64,000 nt of DNA from Lactobacillales bacterium (lineage in GTDB: Bacteria; Bacillota_I; Bacilli_A; RF39; UBA660). How positions within the stretch are numbered: position 1 is the first letter of the stretch; each line of letters begins with the position of its first letter. The notes under the pieces were generated by a model, which was not told the DNA's origin, did not search any database, and saw only the letters and a list, made by a program, of their open reading frames with translations. The stretch spans positions 167,381 to 231,380 of the forward strand of contig SVAG01000001.1 in NCBI GenBank assembly GCA_015059545.1. Reading direction: 5' to 3'. Shown here one piece after another: positions 15,554 to 36,482 of the stretch. The position numbers and the translations under genes are program-made.

Positions 15554-17131
15554 GTGGTACTTAGAAAACCATATAAGTTTCTTATAAAGCATTTTAAAAT
15601 GATTCACTTAATATTAGCAGTAATAAGTGGATACTTACTTATTAAAACAAATGGAATTTTAAATTTTTTTAATGGGTATTTAAATAATAATCAAACATTA
15701 ATTGGATCAGGAACTGTTAATGAGTATTTTAATAATATTATGTCGATATTCGTAATAGTAGTAATAATTGGTACTATTATTATTGGAATAATAATGAAGA
15801 TGAAAGATAAGCCTATAGTTTTCTATATTGTAAATTTAATAGCTTACATAATTATAGGAGTTATATATGTTTATGACAAATCATTAATTGAAACACTTGA
15901 ATTAAAAGTTTTAGATATAAGAACTATTAAATTAGCTAGTGATTTAACTTTAATCTGTTTCTTAGTTCAAACTTTAAATACAATAATTTTATCAATACGT
16001 GCTGTTGGATTTGACTTAAAAAAATTTGATTTTGGTAAAGATATGGAATTCGAAATTGATGAAAAAGATAATGAAGAATTCGAATTTGATGTAAGTATAG
16101 ATAAAAATAAAATTAGAAGAAATGTAAAGAAAAATATAAGAAATATTAAATATGCATATCATGAAAATAAATTTGTTACTAATATTGTGATTGTAGTAGT
16201 AATAGCTGCAATTGGAATAATGTTTTATTTAAATAAAGAAGTATTTAATAAAGTTTACAAAAAAGGTGAAATGATAAATACACCACAATTTAGTTATTCA
16301 TTAGTAGATAGTTATATAACAGATAAAAACTATAGAAATAACAAGATTACTGATAATTATCTTGTAGTAGCTAAATTAAATATTAAAAATAATACAGATG
16401 AAAAAATTAAATTTGAAACTGCAAGAGTATTATTACATATAGGTAAAGTAACTTATAATCCAACTACTAAATATAAAGATGAATTAATAGATTTAGGTGT
16501 GGATATAGCAAATAAAAGTATAAAAAAAGATTTTGAAGAATATGTTGTTACATTTGAAATACCAAAAGAAGACATTTCTGAAAAAATGATATTAAGCTAT
16601 AACGATATAAGTAATAAAACACATGCAATTAAATTAAATAATATTAAATTTGATAATAAAAAAGAAAACATAAAATCATATTTAATGGGGAATATGACTA
16701 TAGAAGATGAAGTATTAAAAAATGTGAAATTTAAAATTAATAAATTTGAAATAAATAATAAAATTAAATCTATCTATAAATTTTGTGAAACAGATACTGT
16801 TTGTTATGAATCATACGAATATATGGTTCCTACATTAACAGATAATTACAACAAAGTTATTATGAAAATAGAAAGTGAAATTGATTTTAATGGTCAAAAA
16901 ATTAAAAACTTTAGTGATTTATCAGATTTTATTGAAAATTATGGAACAATAAAATATAAAATAGGTGATGCAGAAAAAGAAATGAAAACAAAAATTATAG
17001 AAGTATTACCTACAAAAACAAAAACTAAAGGAGTCCATTATTTCGAAATATATGAAGAAATAAAAGATGCTACTGAAATTTCATTAATTTTAAATATTAG
17101 AAATAGAACTTATCAATATAAAATAAAATGA
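15554..17131 (+). CDS. Polytopic membrane protein with a large C-terminal extracytoplasmic domain (525 aa)
   Basis: GTG start after GGAGGGG. About 5 N-terminal TM segments plus one more near residue 210. No family recognised. Confidence 0.55.
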   Translation: MVLRKPYKFLIKHFKMIHLILAVISGYLLIKTNGILNFFNGYLNNNQTLIGSGTVNEYFNNIMSIFVIVVIIGTIIIGIIMKMKDKPIVFYIVNLIAYIIIGVIYVYDKSLIETLELKVLDIRTIKLASDLTLICFLVQTLNTIILSIRAVGFDLKKFDFGKDMEFEIDEKDNEEFEFDVSIDKNKIRRNVKKNIRNIKYAYHENKFVTNIVIVVVIAAIGIMFYLNKEVFNKVYKKGEMINTPQFSYSLVDSYITDKNYRNNKITDNYLVVAKLNIKNNTDEKIKFETARVLLHIGKVTYNPTTKYKDELIDLGVDIANKSIKKDFEEYVVTFEIPKEDISEKMILSYNDISNKTHAIKLNNIKFDNKKENIKSYLMGNMTIEDEVLKNVKFKINKFEINNKIKSIYKFCETDTVCYESYEYMVPTLTDNYNKVIMKIESEIDFNGQKIKNFSDLSDFIENYGTIKYKIGDAEKEMKTKIIEVLPTKTKTKGVHYFEIYEEIKDATEISLILNIRNRTYQYKIK

Positions 17132-17180: not shown

Positions 17181-17221
17181 AATTATTGATGGTAAACTAT
17201 AGTATAGGAAAGATGATGTGT

Positions 17222-20200
17222 ATGAAAAATTTAAAAAAATATTTAACAATATCATTAATATTTGTAATATTTTTAATTAATATAAATGAAGTATCTGCAG
17301 CAGCCGCAACTTATAGTGCAAATGCTGGGACTGCTTACAATGGTGGTGCAGTGTCTAATAGTTGTGCAGGTAAGACAAACTGTGCAGTTAGTAGTGATAG
17401 CGAAATGATAATTCAAGCTAAAATGTATTATGTAAATAATGGTTCTTTTGATGTGGTGGGAGCAACAGCTTACTTTGTAGATAGTGATGCATATAATATT
17501 TTAAAAGATAAAGGATTAAATTTAATATATGTGCCTATGTTCAATCAATATAGATCACATGAACAGGCTGCTGAATACTTAAAATCATATTTTGGATCAG
17601 GAGCAAGAACAACAACTGATGGAATAAATTTTTTAAAAACTATAACTGGTTTACAAGATTATTCGGAAATGGTTAGTAATCAAAGTCAAGGTGTAGGTGG
17701 AACAAAAGGATATAGAGTAGTTATAGAACCAGCATATAGATATGCTAATCCAACATTTGGTACAAATTATACATATGCATTAATGACTCCTAAAGGGTTA
17801 GCTGCTGAAAAATATGTAGATGGTGTTAATACTACATGTTTAGGAGAAGTTAATAAACAATCTATATGCATTAGACCGGTTTTAGGTTTAAATTCTCAAT
17901 CTCAATATTTACGTGTTAAATCAAATGATGTAGGAATAGAAGCAGCAAGTGTTGATTATTGTTCTAGACAAGCTGCAATCTCAGATATTGCTAATAAACA
18001 AATTGGTTGCGGATATGATATGATTGATATGAGTAAATATGTGATTGTAAAAAAATGTTATTCACAAAAAGTAAATATTAGCAATAAAAATTTTAGTTGT
18101 AAAAATTATGATGAAAATAATGTTATAAAGTTTACTGAAGAATATAAAAATGATTGTAATTCTACAAGTCCTACAGGCTTTAACGAATCAGGAAAATATA
18201 TAGCAGAAAGTGGAACTTGTAAAATTTATTGTAAAGAATCAGCACAGGTTAGTTTACCTGGAAATATTTCAGGATCAATACAAAGAGGATCTTACTTTGC
18301 GTGGCCTACAAGACCGGACGATGCTAGTGGATTGTATAGTATGAATATGAAATCTACATTAGTTTGTACAATAAAAGATACTGCAGCTCTAGCACAAACA
18401 GTAGGTACAGAATTAATTATGGGATGTCAAGAAAATTTTACACCTTATAATAGAGATACTTGCCGTTCTATAACAGATAAAACAGAGAAAATATGCCCAT
18501 TCGGAACGGAAGAAAGAAATGGAAAATGTTATAAATTAGCAAATGCTACTAAAATAACAGATGCATTAACTACTGAACAAGTTAGTAAAGTATGTCCATC
18601 TGATGGAACATATGAATTAATAGATAATAAATGCTATCATCAAGTTAACCCTACATCAAAAGATGAGGCTTCAACTAGTAAAGTATGTCCAGATGGATAT
18701 AAAACTAATTCAGGTGGAACTGGTGATAAAGCTTGTAAAAAAACGGTTGACAATTGGGTATGTCCACAATACTATAGTACTAATCCTGGAGGGTCAGGTG
18801 ATTACGCCTGTAGATTAAAAAAATATAAATACTATGGTGCAGAGTATGGAAGTGTTGATGGTGGGAAAAGTAGTATTTGTGAATCTGTATATGGAGGATG
18901 GTTTGTAAATGGTAAATATTGCAATCCTTACTCTGATCCTTGTTGTAAAATACCAGATGGATATTGGTATAAACCAAAAGTTAATAGTCCAACTACTAAA
19001 TATGCAGCAAAAAAATGCTTAGGTGGAGAAGATTCAAAAGGAAATTGTAAGCCATATTGTGCAAAAGGAACTGCTGTAAAAGTTGATAAAAAATATAGAT
19101 GTATTGTATGTCCAAGTGGGTATAAAGTATCTAGTGTTGCTGGTAAATGTGTTAAAAAGAAAAATACTGCAAAAGTGTGCCCATCAGGATCAAGTTTAAA
19201 TTCTTCAGATAATAAATGCTATAAAATTGTTCCACCATATTGTACAAAAGGTACATTAATGGATGTTAATTTCAAATATAAATGTTTAACATGTCCAAGT
19301 GGATATAGTGTGTCTTATATAAATAAAGGTAGATGTGTTCAAAATTCAGAAACAGCTAAAGTATGCCCATCAGGATATGTAGAAGTAAAATCTACAGGAG
19401 AATGTTATTTAGCAGCTAAGAAAAACAAACCTAAATTTAGTTGTCCATCAGGGTATACTATGAATTCAGATCAAGAAACATGTAACAAAGTATGTAACAA
19501 AGAAGATTTAGTAAATAAATCAAGCTCAGTAATTATTAGTGATGAAACTAATCCTATCAGTGCTTCATTAGTTGCTGGTTCAAATATAGAACTAAAAAAA
19601 ATAGAAGAGCCTGTAAAAACATTTAAAGAAACAAAAGATAATGTTGATATTTATACATTTGAAAGAGTTGCTCATTTTAAAATTGAAGAAAACACAAATA
19701 GATATTATGATAGATTAACAGGCGCTGTATCTAATCAAGGAGAATCGAGTGAAAGAATTTTTGATAGAGGAGAAGGAGTTATATCAGTTTCTAAAACCGC
19801 AAAAACATATGATGATAATGGAAACATATTTAAATATAAACTTCAAATAAAAGATATTAATATAGGTAGTGGGGGTAGATTTGGTAAATTAATAACAAAC
19901 TATTCATGCGAATATATAGTAACTGAAGATGACGATGATTGTGTTTGTCCGAATGGAACAAAAAATGCTGGAATGTCATTAAATGAACTTACTGCAAAGT
20001 ATTGTAATAATGTTAATAAGACTTGTTCAGAATGGCAATACTTATTATGTGATTCACCATATTCAAAAATACTTGAAATCGAAGGATGTACAGATAAATT
20101 ATATTGCAATAATACACAAACAAATGCAAAAATTAATATAACAGATTGTGTAAAAAAAGAAGCTGATACTAAAACTTTAGATAAAGCAATTAATACATGT

Positions 20201-21049
20201 CAAACAAATCAAACAGAATGTACAAATAATTGGTGTTATAATCAAAAAAATAATAAACCTGTACCTATAGCAGATTGTCTAAGTGAAGGAAATTCAAGAG
20301 AAACATGTTATAGAAAAATGGGATGTACTACAGATATTTGTGAAGATGGAAAATGCTGTACAGGTACATGTAAATGGTCATATGGAAAAACAAAGGATAA
20401 TACTGTAACATATGGATATCAAACATGTAACAATAATAGATATTGTGGATTTATAGCATATTGTACAAATGATAGCAGAAAAACATCTATTCATACAAAT
20501 CAATGTATTCAAAGTAAATTAAAAACAACAAGTATCACTGGATATTTAAATACTGAAAGGAATTTTGAAAAATTAAAAGAATCAGTAGAAGCATGTAAAT
20601 CAACAATTTGTGCATCAAGTGAAAAAATTGTTTATAGAGTTGTAGATTTAACAAATCCTTTCCCTGGAAAAGATGGAATTAAAAATGCTTTAACTATAGT
20701 GAATGCTAATAGAGAACCTGGATACAACTGGAATTCAGAAACAGCTATAAAAGAACAAATTTTAAATGGTAGAGGAGCATCAGGATACGAATTATATAAT
20801 AAAGAACCTCTTATAACAATCAAACTTACACCAAGCGATATAAAAGCAATAAAAAAATATAATGAAACAACACCATATAATAATTTTGATATGAATTGTA
20901 TAAGTGGTGATAGTGCATCAGGATGTATAAGTAATTTTTTACATAAAAATGAACTTAATTTAGATATAGATGGGGTTGCAAATTGTACAAATTTAAATGC
21001 ATCTTCTTCTATAGAACAATTTAACAATTGTTATAACAAAGAGAATTAA
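17222..21049 (+). CDS. Giant secreted Cys-rich protein, paralog 1 (about 1275 aa), with a central CPxGY Cys-repeat cassette
   Basis: Sec signal peptide MKNLKKYLTISLIFVIFLININEVSA (ATG at 17222, 9 nt after AGGAAAG; the ORF track starts at a TTG at 17186). It shares long conserved N- and C-terminal blocks with the ORFs at 21781 and 26300. No LPXTG motif or C-terminal TM seen. Confidence 0.8.
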   Translation: MKNLKKYLTISLIFVIFLININEVSAAAATYSANAGTAYNGGAVSNSCAGKTNCAVSSDSEMIIQAKMYYVNNGSFDVVGATAYFVDSDAYNILKDKGLNLIYVPMFNQYRSHEQAAEYLKSYFGSGARTTTDGINFLKTITGLQDYSEMVSNQSQGVGGTKGYRVVIEPAYRYANPTFGTNYTYALMTPKGLAAEKYVDGVNTTCLGEVNKQSICIRPVLGLNSQSQYLRVKSNDVGIEAASVDYCSRQAAISDIANKQIGCGYDMIDMSKYVIVKKCYSQKVNISNKNFSCKNYDENNVIKFTEEYKNDCNSTSPTGFNESGKYIAESGTCKIYCKESAQVSLPGNISGSIQRGSYFAWPTRPDDASGLYSMNMKSTLVCTIKDTAALAQTVGTELIMGCQENFTPYNRDTCRSITDKTEKICPFGTEERNGKCYKLANATKITDALTTEQVSKVCPSDGTYELIDNKCYHQVNPTSKDEASTSKVCPDGYKTNSGGTGDKACKKTVDNWVCPQYYSTNPGGSGDYACRLKKYKYYGAEYGSVDGGKSSICESVYGGWFVNGKYCNPYSDPCCKIPDGYWYKPKVNSPTTKYAAKKCLGGEDSKGNCKPYCAKGTAVKVDKKYRCIVCPSGYKVSSVAGKCVKKKNTAKVCPSGSSLNSSDNKCYKIVPPYCTKGTLMDVNFKYKCLTCPSGYSVSYINKGRCVQNSETAKVCPSGYVEVKSTGECYLAAKKNKPKFSCPSGYTMNSDQETCNKVCNKEDLVNKSSSVIISDETNPISASLVAGSNIELKKIEEPVKTFKETKDNVDIYTFERVAHFKIEENTNRYYDRLTGAVSNQGESSERIFDRGEGVISVSKTAKTYDDNGNIFKYKLQIKDINIGSGGRFGKLITNYSCEYIVTEDDDDCVCPNGTKNAGMSLNELTAKYCNNVNKTCSEWQYLLCDSPYSKILEIEGCTDKLYCNNTQTNAKINITDCVKKEADTKTLDKAINTCQTNQTECTNNWCYNQKNNKPVPIADCLSEGNSRETCYRKMGCTTDICEDGKCCTGTCKWSYGKTKDNTVTYGYQTCNNNRYCGFIAYCTNDSRKTSIHTNQCIQSKLKTTSITGYLNTERNFEKLKESVEACKSTICASSEKIVYRVVDLTNPFPGKDGIKNALTIVNANREPGYNWNSETAIKEQILNGRGASGYELYNKEPLITIKLTPSDIKAIKKYNETTPYNNFDMNCISGDSASGCISNFLHKNELNLDIDGVANCTNLNASSSIEQFNNCYNKEN

Positions 21050-21780: not shown

Positions 21781-24700
21781 ATGAATAAAAGAAAAAACAT
21801 GTTTATAACATTATTGATTATGTTTTTTTCTTTTGTTTGTGTAAATAAAGTGACTGCTTTATATAATGGTAGTGGTGGAACAGGGTATGATGGTGGTTCA
21901 AGAGGTGACTGTGGAAGTATAGTAAACTGTTCATACAACAACTCTAATATGTTAATAATGCAAGCGAGATTATATTACATTAATAATGGTTCGTTTTCTC
22001 ATATTGGGAAAACATATTATTTTGTAAATAAAAATGCTTCGGATTTTTTAGCTGGCAAAGGACTCAATTTAATTTATATAAGTGCTTTTGATGGATATGG
22101 AAAAAATTATCAAAAAGCTAGTAAATATTTAAAAGAAACATATTTTGGAAATACAGCAACTAACCCAAAAAAAGATACAGCAATAACTTTTTTAAATAAT
22201 GTTACAAGTTCAGATAATTATCTGAAGGTTTTAACTAAAAAAAGTGAATTTGCAAATAAAACGACAGCAGCAAAAAAAGGATATAGAATTATCATAGAAC
22301 CTGCTAATAATTATGCTAATCCTTCATTCAGTAATAATACACATGCTTTAATTACAGTAAAAGGTATGGCAGGTGAAGTAAAAGGTGGAGCCCACATATC
22401 ATGTTTAGGTACACCTGGAGCAACTACTACTGTGTGTGGTAATCCTTTATTAGGTAATGGATCACAAGCTCAGTTATTATTCACAAATTTTAAAGATGTA
22501 GGAATTTCAGCTGCATCAAAAGAAATATGTGAAAAAATTACAATAAATGGACTAGCTGATATAAAAAAAGGTTGTGGATATAATATTGTTGATATTAGCC
22601 AATATGTTGATGAACCAGAATGCTATGTTAGCAGTTTAAATGGAGCATTAACCTGTGATAATACAGATGAAAACAATGTTACAGATTTTACTGAAACTTA
22701 TACAAAATTAGAAAAGTGCCCAGCTGATATATCAGAAGACGAACAACAACAAATTAGTAAAGATGGAAAAATAATAGGTACAACTATTGGAACTTGTACT
22801 ATGTATTGTAAAGAATCAGCGATTGCTAGTTTTCCTGGAAATGTAGGTAACTTAATTCAAAGAGGATCTTATTTTGCATGGCCAACAAGACCAGATGATA
22901 CAAAAGGATTATATAGTATGAGCATGCAATCAACATTTACTTGTAAAATACAAGATGAAGGAGCTGCAGATACAGTAGCTGCTACATATACAAGAAAATG
23001 TATTGGAAATACTACAGAATTTGATGAAGATAATTGTAGATCAAAAACAGAAACTAAAACTAGATTGTGTCCAAAAGATTACTATTTAAGCGGAACTACA
23101 TGTTATAGTAATGCAACATATTGTGCTAATGGTGTAAAAGAAAACGGGAAGTGTAAAATAACGACATATTATTGTGCATCAGGATACACACTTTCAGGAA
23201 AAAAGTGTTATACATATGCTTGTCCAAGTGATTCACAAATTTATAGTGGCTCAGGTTCAAATATGCTGTGTACTAAAACTGAAAAAGTGTGTCCATCTGG
23301 ATGGAATCCATATGGAACATCAGGAACAGAATGTGCTAAAAATGCAACTCCTATATATAGCTATAAATGTTCGGAAGGTTCGTTAAATGAATCATCTTGT
23401 TTAAAAAATGCAACAACAACTAGATTTTGTCCGTCTGGGACACAAAATGGTGAATGGTGTTATAGAAGCAAAGCACCTAATGCAAGTTGTCCTCAGGGGT
23501 GGACAAAAGTTACAGAATATAAATGTAAAAAATATACTAGTTCAAAATACACTTGTCCATCAGGTTGGACACCATATGGAACATCAGGATCACAATGTAA
23601 AAAAAATGCTACGAAATATATTAGTTCTTACTCTTGTAAAGAAGGGGACTTAAAAAGTTCGATGTGTGTAACAAAAAAAGAAAATAAAACAACGATATTT
23701 AAAGCTACAAAAGTAGAGGTTAATGCATATACAAAAGTGACATATGAAAATCCATATAGTAAGACAACTGCTTCTACTTGCCCAGAAGGCACTGGTGATT
23801 CAGGAGGAAAATGTTATATCTTATCAGAAAAAGTGACAACTGATTATAGATGCCCAAAAGGATACACTTTAAATGGAAAAACTTGTGTTAATAATTGCGA
23901 TAAAACAAAATTAATAAATAATGTAAAAGAAATATTAAAAAATAATAAATATGAAGCTCATCTAACAGCGGGTACAAATAATCCACTTACAAATATTAAA
24001 TTACAAATTGCAAAAATAGAAGAAAATTATGATGATAATAAACTTGTTTTCACCAAGAAAGTATATTTTAAAATCCCATCAGATGCTACTAGTGGTAAAA
24101 ATAGATATTATAATAAAATAACAGGAATTGTTTCTGATTCATCTTCTTTAAGTAATACAATTTTTGATAGAGGAGAAGGAGTAGTATCAACAAGTTTAAG
24201 AGATAAAATTCTTGTTGGTAATAATATAAAAAAATATGAGCTAAAAATCACAGGAGTTAAATTAGGTACAAATAATCAATTTGGAGAAAAAATAACAAAT
24301 TATACATGTAATTATAGTGTCACTGATAATGGTGATGATTGTGTATGTCCGGATGGAACAACGAATGCAGGTGTATCAATTAAATATTTAAAGAAACAAT
24401 TATGTGAAAGTGAACAAGGAACAGAAAACAAAACATGTGTTGATTGGCAAAATGATCTTTGTAATTATGATGGTACAAACGGAAATGAAATAGAAGAATG
24501 TACAGTAACTAATAAATTTTATTGCATAGATTCTAAAAATAGTAAAAAAGATAATCCTATAAAAATAGATATAACTAGTTGTGTAAGATCATTAATGGCA
24601 AGTACAGGTTCCAATTTAGAAGAATCTATAACAAAATGTACAAATGCTCAATCAAAATGTACAAATGAATATTGTATTAATTCAAAAACAGGAGAACAAA

Positions 24701-25509
24701 TTTTAATTAAAGATTGCTTGGAAAATAATTCTAGAATGGCTTGTTATGAAAAATATGGATGTTTACTTGATATATGTGAACCAGGTAAATGTTGTACTGG
24801 AAAATGTAATTGGACTTATAAAAATCTTGAAAAAATGGTTTATGGTATACAAACTTGTAATAATGACGGAAGAACTAATCAGTATTGTGGGTTTGAAGTA
24901 TATTGTTCCACAGATAAAACAACATCAAAATCAGCAAAACAATGTATAGAACAACAATTAAATACAAATGATGTTTTGAAAAAAATAAGCACAGGTTTAA
25001 ATCAAAGTGAACTTCAAAGAGCTATAACAGCTTGTGAAACTAAAGTTTGTTCAGTTAATTCGAAAATTGTTTATAGAACTATAGATTTAACAAATCCGTT
25101 CCCTGGTAAAAGTGATAAGAGAAATGAAGTAGGATTTTCGTTATTAAATCAAAAAAGTAGAACACCGGGATACAATTGGAATTCTAAAAACACAGTAAAA
25201 GAAAAAATATTAAATGCTAGAGGTGTAGAAGGATATAATTTATATAACAAACAACCACTTATTACAATAACATTAACACCTAATGATATAAAAGAAATCA
25301 GAAAATATAATGAAAAAACAGCATATAATGATTTTAAATTAAAATGTGTTAATAATGATGAATCGTCATCTTGTATTAGTTACTTTTTACATTCAAGTTC
25401 TACAACACTTGGTAAAAACCTTAATATAAAAGGAGTTAGTAATTGTACTAAATTAAATGCTTCATCAAATGTTCAAGATTTTAATAAATGTTATAATTCT
25501 AACAATTAA
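21781..25509 (+). CDS. Giant secreted Cys-rich protein, paralog 2 (1242 aa), with a central CPSGW/CPxGY Cys-repeat cassette
   Basis: It starts 14 nt after the partner gene. Signal peptide ...VNKVTA. The conserved blocks (GYRIIIEPANNYANP, RGSYFAWPTRPDD, DCVCPDGT, KIVYRTIDLTNPFPGK, PGYNWNS) are colinear with paralogs 1 and 3. Confidence 0.85.
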   Translation: MNKRKNMFITLLIMFFSFVCVNKVTALYNGSGGTGYDGGSRGDCGSIVNCSYNNSNMLIMQARLYYINNGSFSHIGKTYYFVNKNASDFLAGKGLNLIYISAFDGYGKNYQKASKYLKETYFGNTATNPKKDTAITFLNNVTSSDNYLKVLTKKSEFANKTTAAKKGYRIIIEPANNYANPSFSNNTHALITVKGMAGEVKGGAHISCLGTPGATTTVCGNPLLGNGSQAQLLFTNFKDVGISAASKEICEKITINGLADIKKGCGYNIVDISQYVDEPECYVSSLNGALTCDNTDENNVTDFTETYTKLEKCPADISEDEQQQISKDGKIIGTTIGTCTMYCKESAIASFPGNVGNLIQRGSYFAWPTRPDDTKGLYSMSMQSTFTCKIQDEGAADTVAATYTRKCIGNTTEFDEDNCRSKTETKTRLCPKDYYLSGTTCYSNATYCANGVKENGKCKITTYYCASGYTLSGKKCYTYACPSDSQIYSGSGSNMLCTKTEKVCPSGWNPYGTSGTECAKNATPIYSYKCSEGSLNESSCLKNATTTRFCPSGTQNGEWCYRSKAPNASCPQGWTKVTEYKCKKYTSSKYTCPSGWTPYGTSGSQCKKNATKYISSYSCKEGDLKSSMCVTKKENKTTIFKATKVEVNAYTKVTYENPYSKTTASTCPEGTGDSGGKCYILSEKVTTDYRCPKGYTLNGKTCVNNCDKTKLINNVKEILKNNKYEAHLTAGTNNPLTNIKLQIAKIEENYDDNKLVFTKKVYFKIPSDATSGKNRYYNKITGIVSDSSSLSNTIFDRGEGVVSTSLRDKILVGNNIKKYELKITGVKLGTNNQFGEKITNYTCNYSVTDNGDDCVCPDGTTNAGVSIKYLKKQLCESEQGTENKTCVDWQNDLCNYDGTNGNEIEECTVTNKFYCIDSKNSKKDNPIKIDITSCVRSLMASTGSNLEESITKCTNAQSKCTNEYCINSKTGEQILIKDCLENNSRMACYEKYGCLLDICEPGKCCTGKCNWTYKNLEKMVYGIQTCNNDGRTNQYCGFEVYCSTDKTTSKSAKQCIEQQLNTNDVLKKISTGLNQSELQRAITACETKVCSVNSKIVYRTIDLTNPFPGKSDKRNEVGFSLLNQKSRTPGYNWNSKNTVKEKILNARGVEGYNLYNKQPLITITLTPNDIKEIRKYNEKTAYNDFKLKCVNNDESSSCISYFLHSSSTTLGKNLNIKGVSNCTKLNASSNVQDFNKCYNSNN

Positions 25510-26299: not shown

Positions 26300-29266
26300 A
26301 TGATGAAAAAAATATTTGTTACACTTTTTGGAATTCTTTGTTGTTTAAATTTCACTAATGTAAAAGCTGCTTACAATGGTGAGGGTGGAGTTTTTGTTCA
26401 TAATGATGGTAATAAAGAATGTGAAGGGTCTAATTGTCAATATGATAACTTTAATAGATTTTATGTAAAATTAACTTTATATTATATTGATAATGGAAAT
26501 TTTGAAACAATAGAAAAAACTAAATCATTTTATGTAACTAGTACAAGTTACAAAAATTATTTAACAACAAGTTTAGGTGTGCCAGAATCAAGCGTATATA
26601 CATTACCTAAAAAATGGCAAGATAAACTTGATAAAATTAGTAATACTGATTCGAAAAGATATGAAAAAACTTCTAATCTGTTAAAAGATTGTTTCGGTGA
26701 TCAAATGGAAAAAATAGATAACATTAGAAGTAAAAATTTAAAAGATTTTTTGAATAAAGCAACTGGTGGAGATTATGAAAGCGTTTTGACAAAAGATACA
26801 GAAAATGCAAACCGTAATGGTTTAATAAGCGAAGGAACTGCAGCAAAAAAAGGATATAGACTTGTAATAGAACCTGCTATTGCATATACAAATGCAACTT
26901 GGGCAAATGGTGGAGGAGGAATCCTTACAGTAAAAGGAACTGCTCAAAAAAGAGTTAGTGGAGTTAGTTTTAGAAGTTATAGTTTACCTCTAATTCCGGG
27001 TGAAGGTGACCCAAAACAATTACCACAATCACAATTTCTACAAACAAGTTTTGATGATGTTGGAATAAAAGCTCAAAGTGAAGGATATTGTGAAAAAAAA
27101 GTTACACTTAATCAACTTGCTGATTTAAAAAATGGTTGTGGATATAATATTATTGATATTGGTAGATTTATAAAACATTATTGTTATTATAAGAATGTAG
27201 AAGATGGAAAATTAAAATGTGTTAATAAAGATCAAAATAATAATGGTGATTTTAAAGAAACATATACCAAAAAAGAATGCTCTACAGAAGAATATAAAAC
27301 AAATACAAATACAAAATATGGAAGATTGATTAAAAAAATAGATAATTGTTCAGTTTATTGTATTGAATCAGCAACTGCGAGTTTTCCAGGACATATATCA
27401 AAAACTTTACAATTAGAAAGTTTTTCTCAAAAAGGTAATTATTTTACATGGCCATCTAGAATAGGTACTAATGGTATGAAAATGTATATGAAAACAAAAT
27501 TAACATGCCATATAAGAAATAATGATGGAAAAACATGTAGTGAAAAGAATATAGAAAGCTTACAAAAAGCTGTTAAATCAGAATTGGATAGTTTAGAAAT
27601 GAAAGCTTCACTAAAAGCTGGGACAAATAAAGAAATAGATGGAAGTTTAGTTTCATACATTGTTAAAGGTCAAGATATAGAATATAAAAATAAAGAAACA
27701 ACTACATATACAGATGGTTATAGAAATGAAAATTGGAATAATGTAAAAGTCAATAAAAAAGAAGATGGGGAAGTATGGAGTAACAAATTCTCTATTGAAA
27801 AGAAAATTTATTTTAAAATTCCTAATGATAAAAATAGATTATATAATAAAGAAAGTGGAAATGTATTTGATGGTATAGCTTCCACTGGAAAAAATATATA
27901 TGATAGAAAAGAGGGAGTTGTCTCTTTGTTATCTGATCAAGATACGAAACCAATATATAATTTAGAAATAAAAAATGTACAATTAGGTGCAGGTAATCAA
28001 TTTGGAACATTAATTGATGAATATAAATGTAATTATAGAATAACAACTCAACCACCATGTGCTTGTCCGGAAGGAACAGTAATGGAAGGGACATCTTTAT
28101 ATGACAAATTGACAGAAGGAAAAACATGTGCTGAATTACAAGAAACATTGTGTAATGTTTGTACATGTCCTCCAAATGCAGCAAATCAATATGAAAAAGA
28201 ATTAGTAGGAGAAGAAGCTACAACAGCAGCATGTAAAAAATTACAAGACGAAAAATGTTATAATTATGACTATTGTACTTTTAATGGTAAACAAATAAAT
28301 CTTACATCTTGTATTGATACGAAAATGAAAGAAAATGGACTGACTAAAGTAGAAGCTTCTACTTATTGTGAACAAATGTTATGTCCAGAATGTACAGATT
28401 CATATGGAATTAAACATGATTTATCTGCTTGCCTAGAAACTGGGAGACCATATATTCTGTGTGAACAAAAATATTGTCCAGGTCAAGTATGTATAGATGA
28501 AGATTGCTATGAATGTAGTCAGAATTGTAAATGGACTTTAAAAGAAAAAACAAAAACAACAGTTGCATATAAAAAACGTTGTGATGATGGAGAAAATTGT
28601 GGATACATTAAAATGTCATGCCCAGCAGGAAATGAAAATATGCTTAATGCAGACAGTTGTATTAAGACACAATTGAAAGATGATTTAAAAGGAAATAGTG
28701 TTGCAGATGGTCTTACTAAAGGATTAATAACGGATGCAGATGTTAGAAGTGCATTTGCTGCTTGTGAAGAAAAAGTTTGTCCATATTCAGGTAGTAAGAT
28801 AATTTATAGACAAATAGATTTAAATGATCCATTCCCAGGTAAAAATCATAAAGGAACTGGAGAAACAAAATATTCAAATAATAATCAAAATGTTAAAAGT
28901 AGAAAACCAGGTGAAAACTGGAATTCAGATGATGTAATAAAAACAAGAATTTTGGAAGCAAGGGGAGTAAAAGGATATGAGTTATATAATAAAGATCCTT
29001 TATATATAATTGTTCTTACTCCAGATACTATGAAAAAAATACGTGAGTATAATTCAAAAAATAAATATGATGATTTTGAATTAACTTGTACAAATATAAA
29101 CAAAACATCTCATTGTATAAGTGATTTCTTGCATAAAGGAATTGGTAATTTAAATCCAAGTGATTTTATTAAACCATCATATGGAAATAAAAATAGTGTT
29201 AATGCTTGTTATAATATGGATTATAGTGAAGGTTCATTTAATAACTGTTATAACGAGAATAATTAA
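26300..29266 (+). CDS. Giant secreted Cys-rich protein, paralog 3 (988 aa), lacking the central Cys-repeat cassette
   Basis: It starts 7 nt after the partner gene. Signal peptide ...FTNVKA. It shares the N-terminal (GYRLVIEPAIAYTNA) and C-terminal (CACPEGT, KIIYRQIDLNDPFPGK, PGENWNS) scaffolds, and the cassette is replaced by a short linker. An alternative ATG lies at 26303. Confidence 0.85.
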   Translation: MMKKIFVTLFGILCCLNFTNVKAAYNGEGGVFVHNDGNKECEGSNCQYDNFNRFYVKLTLYYIDNGNFETIEKTKSFYVTSTSYKNYLTTSLGVPESSVYTLPKKWQDKLDKISNTDSKRYEKTSNLLKDCFGDQMEKIDNIRSKNLKDFLNKATGGDYESVLTKDTENANRNGLISEGTAAKKGYRLVIEPAIAYTNATWANGGGGILTVKGTAQKRVSGVSFRSYSLPLIPGEGDPKQLPQSQFLQTSFDDVGIKAQSEGYCEKKVTLNQLADLKNGCGYNIIDIGRFIKHYCYYKNVEDGKLKCVNKDQNNNGDFKETYTKKECSTEEYKTNTNTKYGRLIKKIDNCSVYCIESATASFPGHISKTLQLESFSQKGNYFTWPSRIGTNGMKMYMKTKLTCHIRNNDGKTCSEKNIESLQKAVKSELDSLEMKASLKAGTNKEIDGSLVSYIVKGQDIEYKNKETTTYTDGYRNENWNNVKVNKKEDGEVWSNKFSIEKKIYFKIPNDKNRLYNKESGNVFDGIASTGKNIYDRKEGVVSLLSDQDTKPIYNLEIKNVQLGAGNQFGTLIDEYKCNYRITTQPPCACPEGTVMEGTSLYDKLTEGKTCAELQETLCNVCTCPPNAANQYEKELVGEEATTAACKKLQDEKCYNYDYCTFNGKQINLTSCIDTKMKENGLTKVEASTYCEQMLCPECTDSYGIKHDLSACLETGRPYILCEQKYCPGQVCIDEDCYECSQNCKWTLKEKTKTTVAYKKRCDDGENCGYIKMSCPAGNENMLNADSCIKTQLKDDLKGNSVADGLTKGLITDADVRSAFAACEEKVCPYSGSKIIYRQIDLNDPFPGKNHKGTGETKYSNNNQNVKSRKPGENWNSDDVIKTRILEARGVKGYELYNKDPLYIIVLTPDTMKKIREYNSKNKYDDFELTCTNINKTSHCISDFLHKGIGNLNPSDFIKPSYGNKNSVNACYNMDYSEGSFNNCYNENN

Positions 29267-29278: not shown

Positions 29279-29680
29279 ATGAAAGAGTCTTTTTGGGGAA
29301 CAATGATATTATCATTTGGAGTAATAGCTATAGTTTTTATATACTTTTTCCAAAATATTACTAATACAGATCAACAAAATTACAACTTACTAAAAGAAAC
29401 AACAGAAGCAGCAATGTATGATTCGATTGATCAAGTAGAATATCAAAAAAATGGTAATATAAAAATAAATGCAGAAAAATTTATTGAAAACTTCATAAGA
29501 AGATATGCAGAAAATGCAAGTTTATCAAATACATATGTTATTGAAATTTACCATATTAGTGAATATCCTCCGAAGGTTAGTTTACTAGTTAAATCTTCTG
29601 AATCAACAAATGCGACAGGAGAAATAATGGAATTTGATATAACAAATAGAATAGATGCTATTCTAGAAACACCATATTAG
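29279..29680 (+). CDS. Pilin-like/TadE-like protein with a short G-terminated leader (133 aa)
   Basis: MKESFWG followed directly by a hydrophobic helix, TMILSFGVIAIVFIYFF. The RBS is AAGGAGG. Confidence 0.5.
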   Translation: MKESFWGTMILSFGVIAIVFIYFFQNITNTDQQNYNLLKETTEAAMYDSIDQVEYQKNGNIKINAEKFIENFIRRYAENASLSNTYVIEIYHISEYPPKVSLLVKSSESTNATGEIMEFDITNRIDAILETPY

Positions 29681-29744
29681 TTCTAAATTTTGAAATTCAA
29701 AATTAGATATAAATACGAAATTAAGGAAGAAAGGGAGATAAGAA

Positions 29745-30572
29745 ATGAATAATTTTATGATTTCGTTACAAAAGTTTTTTAAAAACAAAAACACAGTTAC
29801 TATCATTGGAGTAGTAGCAATAATCTTAATCTTGTTTTTTGGATATCGTTACCAAATCAATAAACAAGTAAGTCCTGTAACAGGTATTCCAGTTGCAGCA
29901 ACAACAATTCAACCAAGAACAAAAATCACAGACGATATGTTAGAATATATCGATGTAGCACCAATCGTATTACAAAAAGGAGAAGTAATAACTAATAAAA
30001 ATGCTATAGTAGGAAAATATAGTAATTATAATACAGTTATTCCAAAAGGTAGTATGTTCTATAATGCTACAGTTATTAATGAAGAAGAATTACCAGATTC
30101 AGCTTTCATAGAAGTTGAAGATGGACAAGTTCCATATAACTTCCCAGTTACAATGGATACAACATATGGAAACTCAATTTTCCCAGGTAATTATGTAGAT
30201 ATCTACATGAAAGCTGTAAGAAAAGATGGAAAATTAATGGTAGGAAAATTACTTGAAAATGTTAAAGTATTAGCTGTTAAAGATTCAGCAGGTAGACATG
30301 TTTTTGAAAACAGTCAAGAAGCTAGAACACCAGCATTCTTAATCTTCGGTGTATCACCAGAAGTAAATATATTACTTAGAAAAGCAAGTTATATGAGTAG
30401 TTATTCTACAGTATTATTCCCAGTTCCACATGGAGCAACAATTGAAGAAGAAGGAGCAACTGCTGTTACTTCACAAACATTAAAAGATTTCATAAATGCC
30501 AATACAGTAGCTAATGATGAAATTGAAGACAAAAAACAAACTACTGAAACAACTACAACTGTTACAGAATAG
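29745..30572 (+). CDS. cpaB: Flp pilus assembly protein CpaB/RcpC-like (SAF domain), membrane-anchored
   Basis: 275 aa. N-terminal TM segment, then a SAF-like segment IPVAATTIQPRTKITDDML...ITNKNAIVGKYSNYNTVIPKGSMF. It lies directly upstream of the CpaF-like ATPase. Confidence 0.6.
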   Translation: MNNFMISLQKFFKNKNTVTIIGVVAIILILFFGYRYQINKQVSPVTGIPVAATTIQPRTKITDDMLEYIDVAPIVLQKGEVITNKNAIVGKYSNYNTVIPKGSMFYNATVINEEELPDSAFIEVEDGQVPYNFPVTMDTTYGNSIFPGNYVDIYMKAVRKDGKLMVGKLLENVKVLAVKDSAGRHVFENSQEARTPAFLIFGVSPEVNILLRKASYMSSYSTVLFPVPHGATIEEEGATAVTSQTLKDFINANTVANDEIEDKKQTTETTTTVTE

Positions 30573-30582
30573 AGATAGATAA

Positions 30583-31983
30583 ATGAACGATTCAATGTTT
30601 TCCCAAATTGATTTTGGGGAACTAAATAAATATTTGAACGATGATGATGTAACCGATATTTCATATAGTAATAATGGTCAACTTTGGTTAAAAACTTTAT
30701 CAAAAGGTATTTATAGAGTTGATAATGAAACTGTTAACAATGCATTTATGGAAAAGTTAGCCTTTCAATGTGCTAACGTTATGGGAAAAACCTTTAACAT
30801 GGCTCATCCATTCCTGGATGCTGAAGGAGCAGAGCTACGTTTAAACTTTGTTCATGATTCAATCGCAAAAAATGGTATAGCTGTGTTAATGCGTAAGACA
30901 CCAGCAAAAATAAGATTAGAAAAAGACAAATTATTAAAAGATGATTATGTAGCGTTAGATATACATGATTTCTTAATAAAATGTGTCAGGGGGCATTGTA
31001 ACATCATTGTATGTGGAGAAACAGGTTCAGGTAAAACCGAATTTGTTAAATATTTAGCTTCACATACAAAAGAAGATGAAAAATTAATTACAATAGAAGA
31101 TACATTGGAATTACACTTAGATCGTATATTCCCACATAGGGATATAGTAGCAATGAAAACAAATAATATAGCTTCATATAGTGAAGTGTTAGTGACATGT
31201 ATGAGACAGAACCCAAAATGGATATTACTATCCGAAGTTCGTAGTGCTGAAGCAGTACTTGCTGTAAGAAACTCAATTTCTTCAGGTCACTATATTTTAT
31301 CTACAATACATGCTGATAAAGCAGCAAGTATTCCAAACCGTATGTACAGTTTGCTTGAAACAAATCAAGATATTGAACAATTCTTAAAATCAATATATAG
31401 ATATATTCAAATAGGTGTATATATAAGAGGATATCAAGATAAAAAAACAAGAAAATTTCATCGTGAAATAGCAGAAGTAACAGAATTTTATGTTACAGAA
31501 GATAATGAAGCTGAATATAATACAATTTATAGAAAAACTACAACTGGTAAAGTTGTAAGAAAAAGTCCATCTAAATATTTAATAGATTACTTAGATGCAC
31601 AAGGTGTAATTTTATCAAAAGACGAAATAGAAGAAGGAGAAATTGAACCTCCGGAAGATTTTGAAACACCTAATATTAGTGAAGTTCCTACAAATAATTT
31701 AAATGTTCAACAAAATGTTCAACCAAATATTCAAAATAATGGAAATGTTAATAATACAATAAGACCACAAATGAATAATATGAATGGTCAAAATATGGTA
31801 AGATCAAATCCAATACCAAATATTTCAAACAATGTTGGACAAACTATTAATAATGGAACAAATTATCAAAATACACAAGTAATTAATAATTCATCAAATA
31901 GACAAATGAATCCAAATGTTGGTTATAATCAAGTTAATTATAATGTAAATCCTTATGCAAACCAAGGAAATAAAACAGAATAA
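30583..31983 (+). CDS. cpaF: CpaF/TadA-family secretion ATPase (T2SS-E/VirB11 superfamily) with an N/Q-rich C-terminal tail
   Basis: 466 aa. Walker A GETGSGKTE, Asp/His-box-like regions (LITIEDTLEL, SEVRSAEA, STIHAD), and a roughly 110-aa Asn/Gln-rich low-complexity tail. Confidence 0.8.
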   Translation: MNDSMFSQIDFGELNKYLNDDDVTDISYSNNGQLWLKTLSKGIYRVDNETVNNAFMEKLAFQCANVMGKTFNMAHPFLDAEGAELRLNFVHDSIAKNGIAVLMRKTPAKIRLEKDKLLKDDYVALDIHDFLIKCVRGHCNIIVCGETGSGKTEFVKYLASHTKEDEKLITIEDTLELHLDRIFPHRDIVAMKTNNIASYSEVLVTCMRQNPKWILLSEVRSAEAVLAVRNSISSGHYILSTIHADKAASIPNRMYSLLETNQDIEQFLKSIYRYIQIGVYIRGYQDKKTRKFHREIAEVTEFYVTEDNEAEYNTIYRKTTTGKVVRKSPSKYLIDYLDAQGVILSKDEIEEGEIEPPEDFETPNISEVPTNNLNVQQNVQPNIQNNGNVNNTIRPQMNNMNGQNMVRSNPIPNISNNVGQTINNGTNYQNTQVINNSSNRQMNPNVGYNQVNYNVNPYANQGNKTE

Positions 31984-31995
31984 AGGAGGTAAAGA

Positions 31996-32901
31996 ATGGA
32001 ATATGTAATTTTTCTACTTATTGCATTAGTAGCAGTATTCGTAATTTCTTATCGAAATAGTAGTGGGGAAAAAGTATATAAATATATTTCAACAAATGCT
32101 GAAAGTATTTATGGTAAATACGCTCCTTATTCATATAAAGAAGTTAGAAAAAAAGTAAAGGAATTAGGTCAAGATTATACAAAAAAACAATATTTAATAC
32201 AAGCATCAGTATTTGCTGCAGGAGCTGCAGTAGTTACATACTTGTATTTCTATAGTTTAATTGTTTCAATCATATACGCAGCTATAGCTGTATCAGTAAT
32301 TCCATATTTACAATATCTTAGATGTAAAAGAATATATAGCGAATTTATATTTGAACAAATTCAAGTTTATACAACAAACGTAATTATGGAATTTGCTACT
32401 ACTCAAGCGTTCGTAAAAGCCTTAGAAGGTGTATATGAATCAGGAGTATTAGAAGACCCAGTAAGAAGCGATGTAAAACTTATGATAGATATGGCTTATG
32501 ATAATGGTACAGTTGATGAATCAATTAAATTCTTTAATAAAAAATATGATTTCTATATTGTTAAGAATACACATCAATTATTCTTACAAATAACAAATGA
32601 AGGTTCTAAAAACTCAAGTGATGCACTTGAAAATATGAGTCAGGATATAGACATGCTTGTAGAAGCTGTTTATAGAGATAGAATAGATAGAGCAACATTC
32701 CATAAGAAATTCCTTACATTCGGTGTAATATTATATCTTATGGTTATGTTAGTTCAATTCTTACTTAGTCCAGAAAGTTATATCCAATTAGTAAATAGTA
32801 ATATTTTAGTTAAACTTTTACTTCATTTAATAATAATAATAAATACTTATTTCTTATTAAATGGTGAAAAATTTTATAATGAGAATGTAGGTGCTGAATA
32901 A
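31996..32901 (+). CDS. tadB: TadB-like platform protein (T2SS-F family, tentative)
   Basis: 301 aa. N-terminal TM, a central TM pair and C-terminal TMs. Position directly after the ATPase supports the call, which rests on topology and synteny. Confidence 0.5.
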   Translation: MEYVIFLLIALVAVFVISYRNSSGEKVYKYISTNAESIYGKYAPYSYKEVRKKVKELGQDYTKKQYLIQASVFAAGAAVVTYLYFYSLIVSIIYAAIAVSVIPYLQYLRCKRIYSEFIFEQIQVYTTNVIMEFATTQAFVKALEGVYESGVLEDPVRSDVKLMIDMAYDNGTVDESIKFFNKKYDFYIVKNTHQLFLQITNEGSKNSSDALENMSQDIDMLVEAVYRDRIDRATFHKKFLTFGVILYLMVMLVQFLLSPESYIQLVNSNILVKLLLHLIIIINTYFLLNGEKFYNENVGAE

Positions 32902-33689
32902 TGGAATTTTTAGCTATAGCAGGTATCATGATATTTGTACTTATATATACAAATAGAATTGATGCAAAGAAATTTATAGGTGATGTAGAACCATATTTTA
33001 AAATGTTAATGGAAGATGATTATGTTTTCTTACTTAACGTTAGATATGGTGGAGAAGACTTAGATGTAAATAAATTATTTAATGATAGAATCAAAAATGC
33101 TGTATTAGTATTTGTAGCAGCATTAGCATATTTCTTATTTACAAATATGTCATTCATAAACTTACTAATTGCATTTATATTAGCAGCAGTAACATTTAAA
33201 TCACCTTATACAAAACTACAAAATTACTATAAAGCAAATTTATCAAAGATAAATCAAATGTTACCATATTACTTAAAAAGTTTGGAAATCTTAGTGCAAC
33301 ATTATACAGTACCAGTAGCACTTGCTAGAAGTATTGAAACTGCACCAGAAATATTTAAATCAGGACTAAAAAAATTAATAGATAAAATCGAATCTGGGGA
33401 TTCTAGTATAGATCCATATATGGATTTTGCTAAAGAATATCCAGTTAAGGACTCAATGAGAATGATGAGACTTCTATATCGTTTAAGTTTAGGAGCTCAA
33501 GAAAGTAAACAAGAACAATTAGTTATGTTTTCTAAAAACGTATCTTCACTTCAAAATAAAATGCGTGAAGATAAATATAAAGCTCGTCTAGAATCAATGG
33601 AAAAGAAAACAATGATGATGTTATTTGCAACAGGTGGAGGAATATTAGTTCTTTTACTATTTGCAATGATGAATATGATGAGTATGTAA
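32901..33689 (+). CDS. tadC: TadC-like platform protein (T2SS-F family, tentative)
   Basis: 262 aa with similar topology. Its start overlaps the tadB-like stop (ATAATGG). Confidence 0.5.
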   Translation: MEFLAIAGIMIFVLIYTNRIDAKKFIGDVEPYFKMLMEDDYVFLLNVRYGGEDLDVNKLFNDRIKNAVLVFVAALAYFLFTNMSFINLLIAFILAAVTFKSPYTKLQNYYKANLSKINQMLPYYLKSLEILVQHYTVPVALARSIETAPEIFKSGLKKLIDKIESGDSSIDPYMDFAKEYPVKDSMRMMRLLYRLSLGAQESKQEQLVMFSKNVSSLQNKMREDKYKARLESMEKKTMMMLFATGGGILVLLLFAMMNMMSM

Positions 33690-33707
33690 AATACTTTACA
33701 CAAAATA

Positions 33708-33736
33708 TTGATAAAATAAATAAAAAGAGTTATAAT
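33708..33736 (+). promoter_or_regulatory. Near-consensus sigma-A promoter directly upstream of the Flp-like pilin gene
   Basis: TTGATA at 33708-33713, a 17-nt spacer, and TATAAT at 33731-33736. The pilin ATG is at 33774. Confidence 0.6.
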
Positions 33737-33773
33737 AAAAATGTATAGATATTAAAATAAGGGTGGTGAGAAA

Positions 33774-33980
33774 ATGAAAGAAGCAGCAGGAGAAGCAAAT
33801 ATGACAGTAATTACAATAGTTTTAATAGCAATCGTTTTAGGTGTTGGGACTATTATTGTTAATAATTTAATGGATAGCGTAAAAAATAATAGTGAATCGA
33901 TGAACCATGGATGTGCAAGCGATGAATATTGGACAGGATCTGCTTGTGCTAAAAGAACTGGAACAACATCAGGAACATAA
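33774..33980 (+). CDS. flp: Flp-like small pilin (68 aa)
   Basis: Leader MKEAAG, then the hydrophobic helix EANMTVITIVLIAIVLGVGTIIV and a short C-terminal domain with 2 Cys. RBS GGGTGGTGA. The size and position fit a Tad major pilin, but it lacks the canonical G/xxxxEY motif. Confidence 0.6.
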   Translation: MKEAAGEANMTVITIVLIAIVLGVGTIIVNNLMDSVKNNSESMNHGCASDEYWTGSACAKRTGTTSGT

Positions 33981-34003
33981 TAAAATATTAGGAGGTAAAC
34001 TAA

Positions 34004-34447
34004 ATGAAGCAAGGGGTAGGAATGTCATTTACAATTAATTTGATTGTTATATTTATAGTGGTTACCTTTGCTTTTTTAGTGGCCACTTTAAATTATTATA
34101 AAGCTTATAAAGTTAATAATGCTATATCAGATAGTATTGAAAAATATGAAGGTTATAATGATTTAGCAATCACAGAAATAAATAGAAAATTAACAACTTT
34201 AGGATATGTTAATAACAAAAAAGGTTGTGACAAAAATAGTAAATATGGAACTTTAGTTAAAACTGATGTTACTAGTGAACAATCAAATTTTAGTTACTGT
34301 GTCTATGAACAAGATACTAATGATGATACAGGAAAATTTAAATATGTAATAATAACATATTTAAATATGAATATACCAATTATTAATGCAACTTTAAATC
34401 TTCCTGTAAAAACAACCACTGAACCAATTTATTATTTTAGTGAGTAG
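34004..34447 (+). CDS. TadE-like pseudopilin 1 (147 aa)
   Basis: Leader MKQGVG, then the hydrophobic helix MSFTINLIVIFIVVTFAFLVA. RBS AGGAGG. Confidence 0.5.
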   Translation: MKQGVGMSFTINLIVIFIVVTFAFLVATLNYYKAYKVNNAISDSIEKYEGYNDLAITEINRKLTTLGYVNNKKGCDKNSKYGTLVKTDVTSEQSNFSYCVYEQDTNDDTGKFKYVIITYLNMNIPIINATLNLPVKTTTEPIYYFSE

Positions 34448-34459
34448 GAGGGATAAATT

Positions 34460-34924: not shown

Positions 34925-34933
34925 AGTTAAGGG

Positions 34934-36395: not shown

Positions 36396-36401
36396 AAAAA
36401 T

Positions 36402-36438
36402 AAAAACAATAGAAAAATCTTTTCTATTGTTTTTTTTT
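36402..36438 (+). terminator. Strong intrinsic terminator directly after the VirB2-like gene
   Basis: AAAAACAATAGAAAA (36402-36416) pairs with TTTTCTATTGTTTTT (36420-36434) to give a 15-bp stem with a 3-nt loop, then a T-run. An extended -10 TGTTATAAT follows at 36440-36448. Confidence 0.7.
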
Positions 36439-36482
36439 ATGTTATAATGTATGTGGTATATTTTAAATAAATGAGGTGCACT

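Follow-up and report, generated by a model that had tools for sequence, protein, structure and literature searches.

The stretch examined here, 64,000 nucleotides of contig SVAG01000001.1 (assembly GCA_015059545.1, positions 167,381 to 231,380 of the forward strand; referred to below as the window), encodes three neighbouring giant secreted proteins, G1, G2 and G3, the first two of which carry a long array of short two-cysteine repeats between conserved terminal regions. The locus raises the question of what this cassette is, how it came to occupy its site and what it does for the proteins that carry it. Our preferred answer, to which we would give a probability of about 55%, is that the cassette is a disulfide-stapled, length-setting stalk, which was gained once, was later resized and is partly shared with R4 and R5, two repeat proteins encoded elsewhere in the same genome.

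The initial annotation, made from the letters of the DNA alone, had described G1, G2, G3 and R4, and all four open reading frames (ORFs) are present on the plus strand. It had placed the cysteine repeats in the first two giants and not in the third, and on this point alignment, a shuffle test and a profile search agree; the limits first proposed for the two cassettes (18420-19500 and 22998-23900) were off by only a few tens of bases (Table 1). In a three-way alignment of G1, G2 and G3 the N- and C-terminal blocks were conserved, and G3 was found to hold, between the same flanking blocks, a non-repeat linker of roughly 90 residues (about nt 27520-27790).

Occurrences of the motif CxxG[YWFGST]x3-13C were counted, with 1000 shuffles as control. 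The counts were 9 for the G1 cassette, 8 for the G2 cassette and 26 for R4, against shuffle means of 0.5, 0.5 and 1.5 (maximum 3-5). The motif is absent from G3 and from the regions flanking the G1 and G2 cassettes.

A profile, A4, was assembled from the last ten units of R4 and 19 homologous fragments from other taxa, and was compared with the 188 ORFs of the window of at least 60 residues. It matched only R4, which is a seed member (1.9e-137), G2 (5.5e-16) and G1 (2.1e-5); no match was obtained for G3 or for any other ORF of the window. The earlier proposal that R4 is built of the same type of unit as the giants' cassettes is strongly upheld for G2 (BLASTP of the cassette against R4, E = 1e-30, 36-38% identity) and more weakly for G1 (E = 2e-10, 26% identity), and the two cassettes match each other at E = 2e-9 with 25% identity. 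A 25-position hidden Markov model of the unit built from R4 alone found G2 and missed G1 entirely, which needed the longer, multi-taxon A4.

The unit is 22-28 residues long, has the form [Y-x]-C-P-x-G-[Y/W/G]-x-L-x-G-x-x-C-x-K-x-x-T and carries two cysteines spaced 10-14 residues apart. An N-A-T in the tail of the units had been suggested as a possible glycosylation sequon. This was not supported, as N-x-S/T occurs within about 1.5 standard deviations of shuffles and the pattern conserved after the second cysteine is x-K-x-x-T; proteobacterial homologues have P-A-T or S-A-T there.

When 1.84 billion cluster representatives were scanned exhaustively with A4 in HMMER, 2,859 proteins matched at E<=1e-3; for 1,393 the match reached E<=1e-10 and for 438 E<=1e-30, and some of the proteins are longer than 4,000 residues. 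Homologues of R4 are abundant, and the commonest strong matches are proteins annotated as TraN; in TraN of sphingomonads and others, up to about 900 residues of repeat units stand before the PF06986 domain. The remaining homologues include RHS/YD proteins (some from Saccharibacteria), surface proteins without annotation and Ser/Thr kinases of Bacilli in which the repeat forms the ectodomain. When 65 family members were compared with Pfam, cEGF was counted in 13, TraN in 6, protein kinase in 5, EGF_3 in 3 and Sushi in 2 (cEGF and Sushi at E<=1e-3), with RHS, Big_2, cadherin-like, fn3 and PKD domains once each. The co-occurring domains (TraN, kinase ectodomains, RHS/YD, Big_2, cadherin-like, fn3, PKD) are all extracellular or contact-related.

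Judged from these matches, the unit is a bacterial extracellular repeat that is widespread but not already annotated, since neither Pfam nor NCBIfam holds a model for it. The eukaryotic flavour of the units and their supposed rarity in Firmicutes were not borne out: the 2,859 bacterial representatives include Bacilli, and the likeness to cEGF and Sushi stays at the level of the motif, below threshold. In G1 the cEGF model (PF12662) scored 10.8 bits, below its gathering threshold of 26.6, and no cEGF match was obtained for G2, G3 or R4. The curated NCBIfam repeats, the Myxococcus-type cysteine-rich repeat among them, gave no relevant match at E<=1 for any of these four proteins. In a profile search of the PDB with the repeat the best matches, to beta2-glycoprotein and factor H (Sushi/CCP), were weak (E = 0.012-0.1), and single-sequence searches of the PDB gave none. 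No published description of the repeat, whether in TraN or in gut Bacilli, turned up in literature searches.

AlphaFold2 modelled residues 555-812 of R4, with the A4 alignment, as an all-beta array of hairpins (a predicted local distance difference test score, or pLDDT, of 79, with stretches above 90). Strand pairs are regularly spaced in the model and there is no globular core. When this model was compared with the PDB by Foldseek, nothing matched at E<=1e-3, and neither an EGF nor a CCP structure was retrieved.

The giants that carry or lack the array are paralogues; identity to G1 is 43% for G2 and 33% for G3. Each of the three has a signal peptide, many cysteines are invariant among them, and neither they nor R4 have an LPx[TSA]G motif, a C-terminal hydrophobic segment or a significant family match in Pfam, NCBIfam or PHROGs. 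The TTG start listed for G1 (17186-17216) is probably too far upstream: the database copy P0267 (1277 residues) starts 10 codons later and then runs into the signal peptide.

The scaffold is rare, a search of 5.8 billion proteins returning 14 with G3 as query and 24 with G2, none of them with a Pfam domain. No relative of the scaffold was found in the PDB by single-sequence or profile search, nor did Foldseek find a match at E<=1e-3 for the predicted model of G2, whose N-terminal domain is confident and whose cassette and C-terminus are poor. The relatives, in alignment A2, have a conserved N-terminal domain, a cysteine-rich C-terminal region that ends in a PFPG...NWNS domain, and a site upstream of DUF5411-RcpC-TadA. 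The PFPG...NWNS domain, the C-terminal ~130 residues with the motifs DLxxPFPGK, PGxNWNS and LTP...YN (in G3, for example, ~28760-29140, residues ~820-948), is the sole part of the giants that could be recognised in all 39 species in which related loci occur. These proteins form a previously undescribed family.

Most of the 39 species-level genomes encode a single short giant (850-1050 residues) without a match to the repeat profile; in this set the cassette-bearing long form occurs only in L007, L010 and the close relatives of the window. Among giants from the databases none of the short forms (941-1038 residues) matched the profile, whereas 12 of the 17 long forms did, the other 5 having more divergent cysteine units. 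The long forms group as one clade when a neighbour-joining tree is built from the scaffold columns that all giants share. The cassette measures 300-415 residues in most long forms. At the same junction it reaches 1,080 residues in P0279 and 1,217 in P0274, homologues of G2 with 1866 residues and 125 cysteines and with 2044 residues and 135 cysteines, respectively; the unit types of P0274 are too divergent to be detected by the repeat profile.

The earlier view of the cassette as a module is supported in that it sits at one fixed site, between the globular N-terminal domain and the cysteine-rich C-terminal region, the short forms being repeat-free and the long forms a single clade. Since this is the distribution, the simplest reading is that the ancestral giant was short and that the array was gained once, at one site and after duplication of the giant gene, and was then diversified and resized. 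Among the homologues of G2, identity to G2 is 30-46% in the cassette and 39-59% in the flanks, and the array has diverged faster than its flanks and has grown and shrunk. It is not hypervariable over short time scales: in P0263, a 77% orthologue of G2, the cassette is equal in length and 76% identical (C-terminal flank, 73%). The cassette is not currently a mobile element.

R4 lies 12.5 kb past the end of a secretion gene cluster, the last gene of which, VirD4, ends at 48704. R5 was located from contigs that overlap the end of the window and stands directly after a PrsW-protease gene. In relatives the chromosomal context of R4 is kept, in the order Ffh ... 173-residue gene, R4, PrsW protease, ABC transporter. 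In two R4 orthologues, P0001 and P0002, the N-terminal anchor and the last ten units are retained and the middle region differs, partly through Big_2 domains. A single-transmembrane protein of 173-185 residues (window 60667-61224), without a family match, always precedes R4 and its orthologues.

Residues 430-630 of G2 were found to be collinear, unit by unit, with the ectodomain of R5 (43% identity over 217 residues, 20 gaps, E = 3e-42). The nearest relative of this block is the G2 orthologue P0263 (72%), followed by R5 (134 bits) and R4 (94 bits); the best other giant, P0264, reaches 87 bits (34%, 58 gaps) and G1 46 bits. R5 itself is 43.3% identical to G2, 44.5% to its paralogue R4 and 32-35% to the R4 orthologues of other genomes. 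A long-loop subtype of the unit, CPxGWxxYG[ST]SGxxC, occurs, among all sequences collected, only in G2, R4, R5 and one other giant. When nearest neighbours were determined for single units, the central units of G2 pointed to R4 and R5 and its edge units to giants, and all 14 units of G1 pointed to other giants.

Recent gene conversion between R4 and the giants was considered and rejected: for R4 the best DNA match spans at most 79 nt at 77%, and for R5 it spans 343 nt at 66%. Because no other giant matches the G2 block as closely as R5 does, these comparisons argue that a block of about 0.6 kb passed between the G2 lineage and the R4/R5 family, and for its having taken place long ago, since the DNA identity is only 66-77%. 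The transfer would fall after the split of G1 and G2 and before that of G2 and P0263. The initial idea of an exchange of units between the distant gene and the giants is therefore retained for G2, with its block collinear with R5, and not for G1, whose units are of the giant type.

The coordinates of the features discussed are collected in Table 1.

Table 1. Position of the giant genes, their cassettes, the repeat proteins and the neighbouring modules in the window.
Feature	Position	Strand	Remarks
525-residue multi-transmembrane protein	15554..17131	+	always precedes the giants in related loci
G1, long-form giant secreted protein	17186..21049	+	1287 residues from the listed TTG start; signal peptide
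G1 Cys-hairpin cassette	18377..19513	+	residues ~398-776; 31 Cys in about 12-14 two-Cys units
S1, 217 residues	21113..21766	+	signal peptide and C-terminal transmembrane anchor; S2 paralogue
G2, long-form giant secreted protein	21781..25509	+	1242 residues
G2 Cys-hairpin cassette	22957..23940	+	residues ~393-720; 27 Cys in about 12-13 units
G2 cassette block collinear with R5 and R4 ectodomains	23068..23670	+	residues 430-630; 43% to R5, 42% to R4
S2, 214 residues	25648..26292	+	S1 paralogue
G3, short-form giant without cassette	26300..29266	+	988 residues
Tad-like pilus module	29279..35929	+	directly downstream of G3
Type IV secretion module	36030..48704	+	monoderm-type
R4, 816 residues	61242..63692	+	N-terminal signal-anchor and about 28-31 Cys-hairpin units
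DNA tandem arrays inside R4	61653..62340	+	72 nt x3.1 (90% identity); 78 nt x4.8 (78%)
R5, 316-residue R4 paralogue	L047:7172-8122, about 0.56 kb beyond position 64000		N-terminal anchor and Cys-hairpin units

If the cassette is a stalk, each unit would be a beta-hairpin closed by its own two cysteines, and the units would stack into a stiff, extended rod with a length depending on their number. Such a rod would act as a spacer and determine the distance at which a terminal domain stands off from the surface of the cell or from a pilus, giving G1 and G2 a long and G3 a short reach when the cell contacts another cell. In R4 and R5 the rod would hold the tip of the protein off its membrane anchor and through the wall. 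The C-terminal ~130 residues of the giants may be a docking domain for conserved machinery, a role suggested by their being the only part recognisable across all species; more speculatively, they could dock on S1/S2, on DUF5411 or on the pilus, with the N-terminal domain and the cassette facing outward.

Comparable arrangements have been described. In Myxococcus TraA a cysteine-rich beta-hairpin region has been described as a presentation stalk for a variable domain (PMC12045341), and TraN is a cysteine-rich adhesin of mating-pair stabilisation with a conserved base and a variable tip (PMC9246713, PMC13104618). The type IV secretion systems (T4SSs) of Gram-positive bacteria depend on adhesins at the surface, and mating pairs can form with the help of type IV pili (PMC12102498).

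Several points weigh against this interpretation. Pairing of the two cysteines is assumed, and the shape and length of the rod are inferred; within G2 itself the cassette was modelled poorly (pLDDT 35-50). The gut habitat is anaerobic, and the window revealed no extracytoplasmic thiol oxidase. An anchor could not be recognised in the giants, so that either end might be the distal one, and since the window lacks a relaxase, the contact served may be of another type than mating. The block could have passed in either direction, although passage from the R4/R5 family to G2 would be the more parsimonious one. The repeats may, finally, be a binding surface themselves.

This last point leads to the main rival, which we regard as possible and on balance unlikely: the cassette would be a specificity determinant whose variable hairpin loops bind a partner bacterium, host mucus or glycans, and block swaps between R4/R5 and G2 would retarget adhesion. 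The faster evolution of the cassette relative to its flanks is in agreement with such a role, as are the loop lengths and residues, which vary among unit subtypes, and the block common to G2 and R5, which suggests selection for a shared property. TraN carries at its tip a beta-hairpin with a cysteine on either side, and this hairpin is inserted into the porin OmpK36 of the recipient (PMC9246713). However, the repeats of TraN upstream of PF06986 are long, regular arrays, more like a spacer than a pocket; the cassette varies four-fold in length at the same site; in P0263 it is no more diverged than the C-terminal flank; and there is no known ligand.

Alternatively, the array could be a contingency or variation device without a specific structural role, in which recombination between tandem copies would add or remove units and so alter surface antigenicity or recognition by phages and the immune system. 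We consider this improbable. The DNA tandem repeats inside R4, which are 78-90% identical, show recent duplication of units, R4 and its orthologues differ in length (630, 816 and 863 residues) as well as in their middle regions, and cassette length varies among the giants. Yet the R4 protein is identical on 7 contigs, and contigs aligned to R4 revealed no clear copy-number variants, although short-read contigs, which end within the array and also map to R5, could hardly have shown them. The DNA of the G2 cassette was intact in six independent faecal metagenome runs (word share 0.98-1.00), and the cassettes of G1 and G2 contain no tandem arrays at the DNA level, so that rapid slippage is unlikely there.

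Coordination of Zn or Fe by the cysteine pairs in a reducing gut, within or between units, would make the cassette a metal-stabilised or metal-binding array. An anaerobic habitat, as indicated by the faecal metagenomes, the regular pairing of cysteines at 10-14 residues and the lack of a thiol oxidase in the window would suit this proposal, which is very improbable all the same: a unit offers two cysteines and not four, with neither a CxxC knuckle nor a histidine partner, and the same repeat is found in TraN of aerobic sphingomonads and in exported parts of proteins. The motif, moreover, matches the C5-C6 hairpin of EGF-type modules, and that hairpin is disulfide-closed.

Scarcely credible is the idea that the units are modules of eukaryote type (EGF, Sushi or ephrin-receptor-like) which came from a host or a protist by horizontal transfer, since the sub-threshold cEGF matches, the cEGF, EGF_3 and Sushi matches in a minority of family members and the weak profile matches to Sushi/CCP chains of the PDB (E~0.01-0.1) are set against two cysteines per unit instead of six (EGF) or four (Sushi), the absence of any window protein at a Pfam gathering score, the failure of Foldseek to find an EGF or CCP structure, and a family that spans Proteobacteria, Bacilli and Saccharibacteria with bacterial partner domains.

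Among known systems, the repeat-extended form of TraN, the mating-pair-stabilisation protein of the F-type T4SS, as encoded on sphingomonad plasmids, is linked to the cassette by the repeat itself, with units such as YSCPSGYTLSGxxC...PAT. Like the giants it is a cysteine-rich surface protein encoded beside a T4SS, with a role in cell-cell contact that is presumed for the giants (PMC9246713). TraN, however, is an outer-membrane protein of diderms and the host here is a monoderm; its repeats precede a conserved C-terminal domain, whereas those of the giants are inserted between two conserved regions; and its scaffold is non-homologous. The giants were considered as Gram-positive homologues of TraN and this was rejected, hhalign giving a probability of 0.2% for the scaffold against the TraN domain alignment and Pfam no PF06986 match.

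TraA of Myxococcus xanthus resembles the stalk proposed here, in that a stiff cysteine-rich beta-hairpin stalk has been proposed to present the variable recognition domain of this contact receptor (PMC12045341). It differs in having a MYXO-CTERM anchor, an outer-membrane location and more cysteines per repeat unit, and no sequence relationship was detectable, the four window proteins giving no NCBIfam/TIGRFAM-type match. With cEGF, the C-terminal hairpin of EGF and the 'YxCxxGYxLxG' of Sushi/CCP the unit shares the local motif C-P-x-G-Y-x-L-x-G-x-x-C. Those are modules of six cysteines and three disulfides (cEGF/EGF) or of four cysteines and ~60 residues (Sushi/CCP), unlike the two-cysteine units here, and profile matches in the PDB had E>=0.012.

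PrgB/aggregation substance and the PilV-assisted mating of R64 and TP114 are comparable in that large surface proteins or pili are encoded with a monoderm T4SS and establish contact between donor and recipient (PMC12102498). The proteins of the window share no sequence or domain similarity with them, have no LPXTG anchor and are not accompanied by a relaxase in the window; their locus is chromosomal and vertically inherited, not part of a plasmid or an integrative and conjugative element (ICE).

The locus in which the giants lie combines two modules. The Tad-like pilus module encodes DUF5411, an RcpC/CpaB-like protein, a T2SSE (TadA/CpaF-like) ATPase, two polytopic TadB/C-like proteins, small pilin-like proteins and a 331-residue protein. 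The type IV secretion module comprises T4SS_pilin proteins, VirB6/TrbL_4, a TcpE-like protein, a VirB4-like ATPase, an M23 cell-wall hydrolase, two lipoproteins and the VirD4 coupling protein. S1 and S2 each have a signal peptide, 5-6 cysteines and a C-terminal transmembrane anchor, and a gene of the S type accompanies the giants in every related locus; these proteins may be a membrane partner, anchor or chaperone for the anchor-less giants.

The gene order is constant in relatives: a polytopic protein of ~525 residues, one to three giants, each usually with an S-type protein of ~210 residues, and then the Tad and the T4SS genes. This synteny holds in L002-L004 and in L007-L045. Tad components are 55-92% identical to those of the window across the 39 species-level genomes of uncultured gut Bacilli, and in L007 synteny extends to the housekeeping genes upstream of the locus. 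The conservation of the Tad components and the syntenic flank in L007 show that the locus is a vertically inherited chromosomal system and not a recently acquired element; the giants are its fastest-evolving parts. A mobile ICE was considered and rejected, as no relaxase or integrase domain was found among the scanned ORFs of the window, no tRNA was found in the window, and the flank in L007 is syntenic. Relaxase-less chromosomal T4SSs of Patescibacteria are thought to serve roles other than conjugation (PMC12102498). One may speculate that the locus is a domesticated contact machine with which reduced-genome gut Bacilli attach to partner cells and exchange material with them, in the manner proposed for those Patescibacteria systems, the cassette being its tunable element of reach and recognition, retargeted by swaps of repeat blocks with R4/R5-like proteins; we consider this picture distinctly unlikely as a whole.

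The window has a G+C content of ~25%, and its plus strand carries nearly all genes. It is chromosomal, with genes for pyruvate formate-lyase and its activase, UppP, SpoIID, a D-Ala-D-Ala carboxypeptidase, Lon and Ffh. Relatives of the giants were found only in metagenome-assembled genomes of uncultured gut 'Bacilli', 'Firmicutes' or 'Tenericutes' (for example CAG:822 and Candidatus Coprosoma), and the closed chromosomes among the genomes with such relatives measure 1.3-1.5 Mb. Because these relatives come from gut genomes and the DNA of the G2 cassette is present in faecal metagenomes, the host is identified as a genome-reduced, RF39-like gut bacillus.

Three further observations concern the surroundings. 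A SpoIID domain is encoded at 8913-10208 of the window and a small acid-soluble spore protein on a related contig (L046:11804-12007), so that sporulation-associated genes occur in a lineage with a genome of 1.3-1.5 Mb. The ORF at 790-2364 contains a 30-nt tandem repeat (10.6 copies, 95% identity, 1525-1841) that encodes a decapeptide and matches Extensin_1 below threshold. A MazE-antitoxin/PemK-toxin pair, annotated from L047, lies at ~59123-59841, between Ffh and the R4 region.

Cysteine-rich repeat stalks in bacterial contact proteins are already known. New here are a repeat family without a Pfam or NCBIfam model or a solved structure, a cassette inserted and resized within a giant-protein family, and the documented transfer of a block between two unrelated surface-protein families of one genome.

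This uncurated repeat occurs in about 2,900 protein clusters, TraN mating adhesins, kinase sensors and RHS toxins among them. The giants offer a natural experiment, with the same scaffold occurring with the array, without it and with a four-fold expanded array. If the cassette is a length-setting stalk, the number of units would predict surface reach for many bacterial adhesins. As fast-evolving members of a conserved pilus and secretion locus the giants are obvious candidates for cell-cell recognition, and this conserved Tad/T4SS locus of uncultured, genome-reduced gut Bacilli may merit more attention than the cassette itself.

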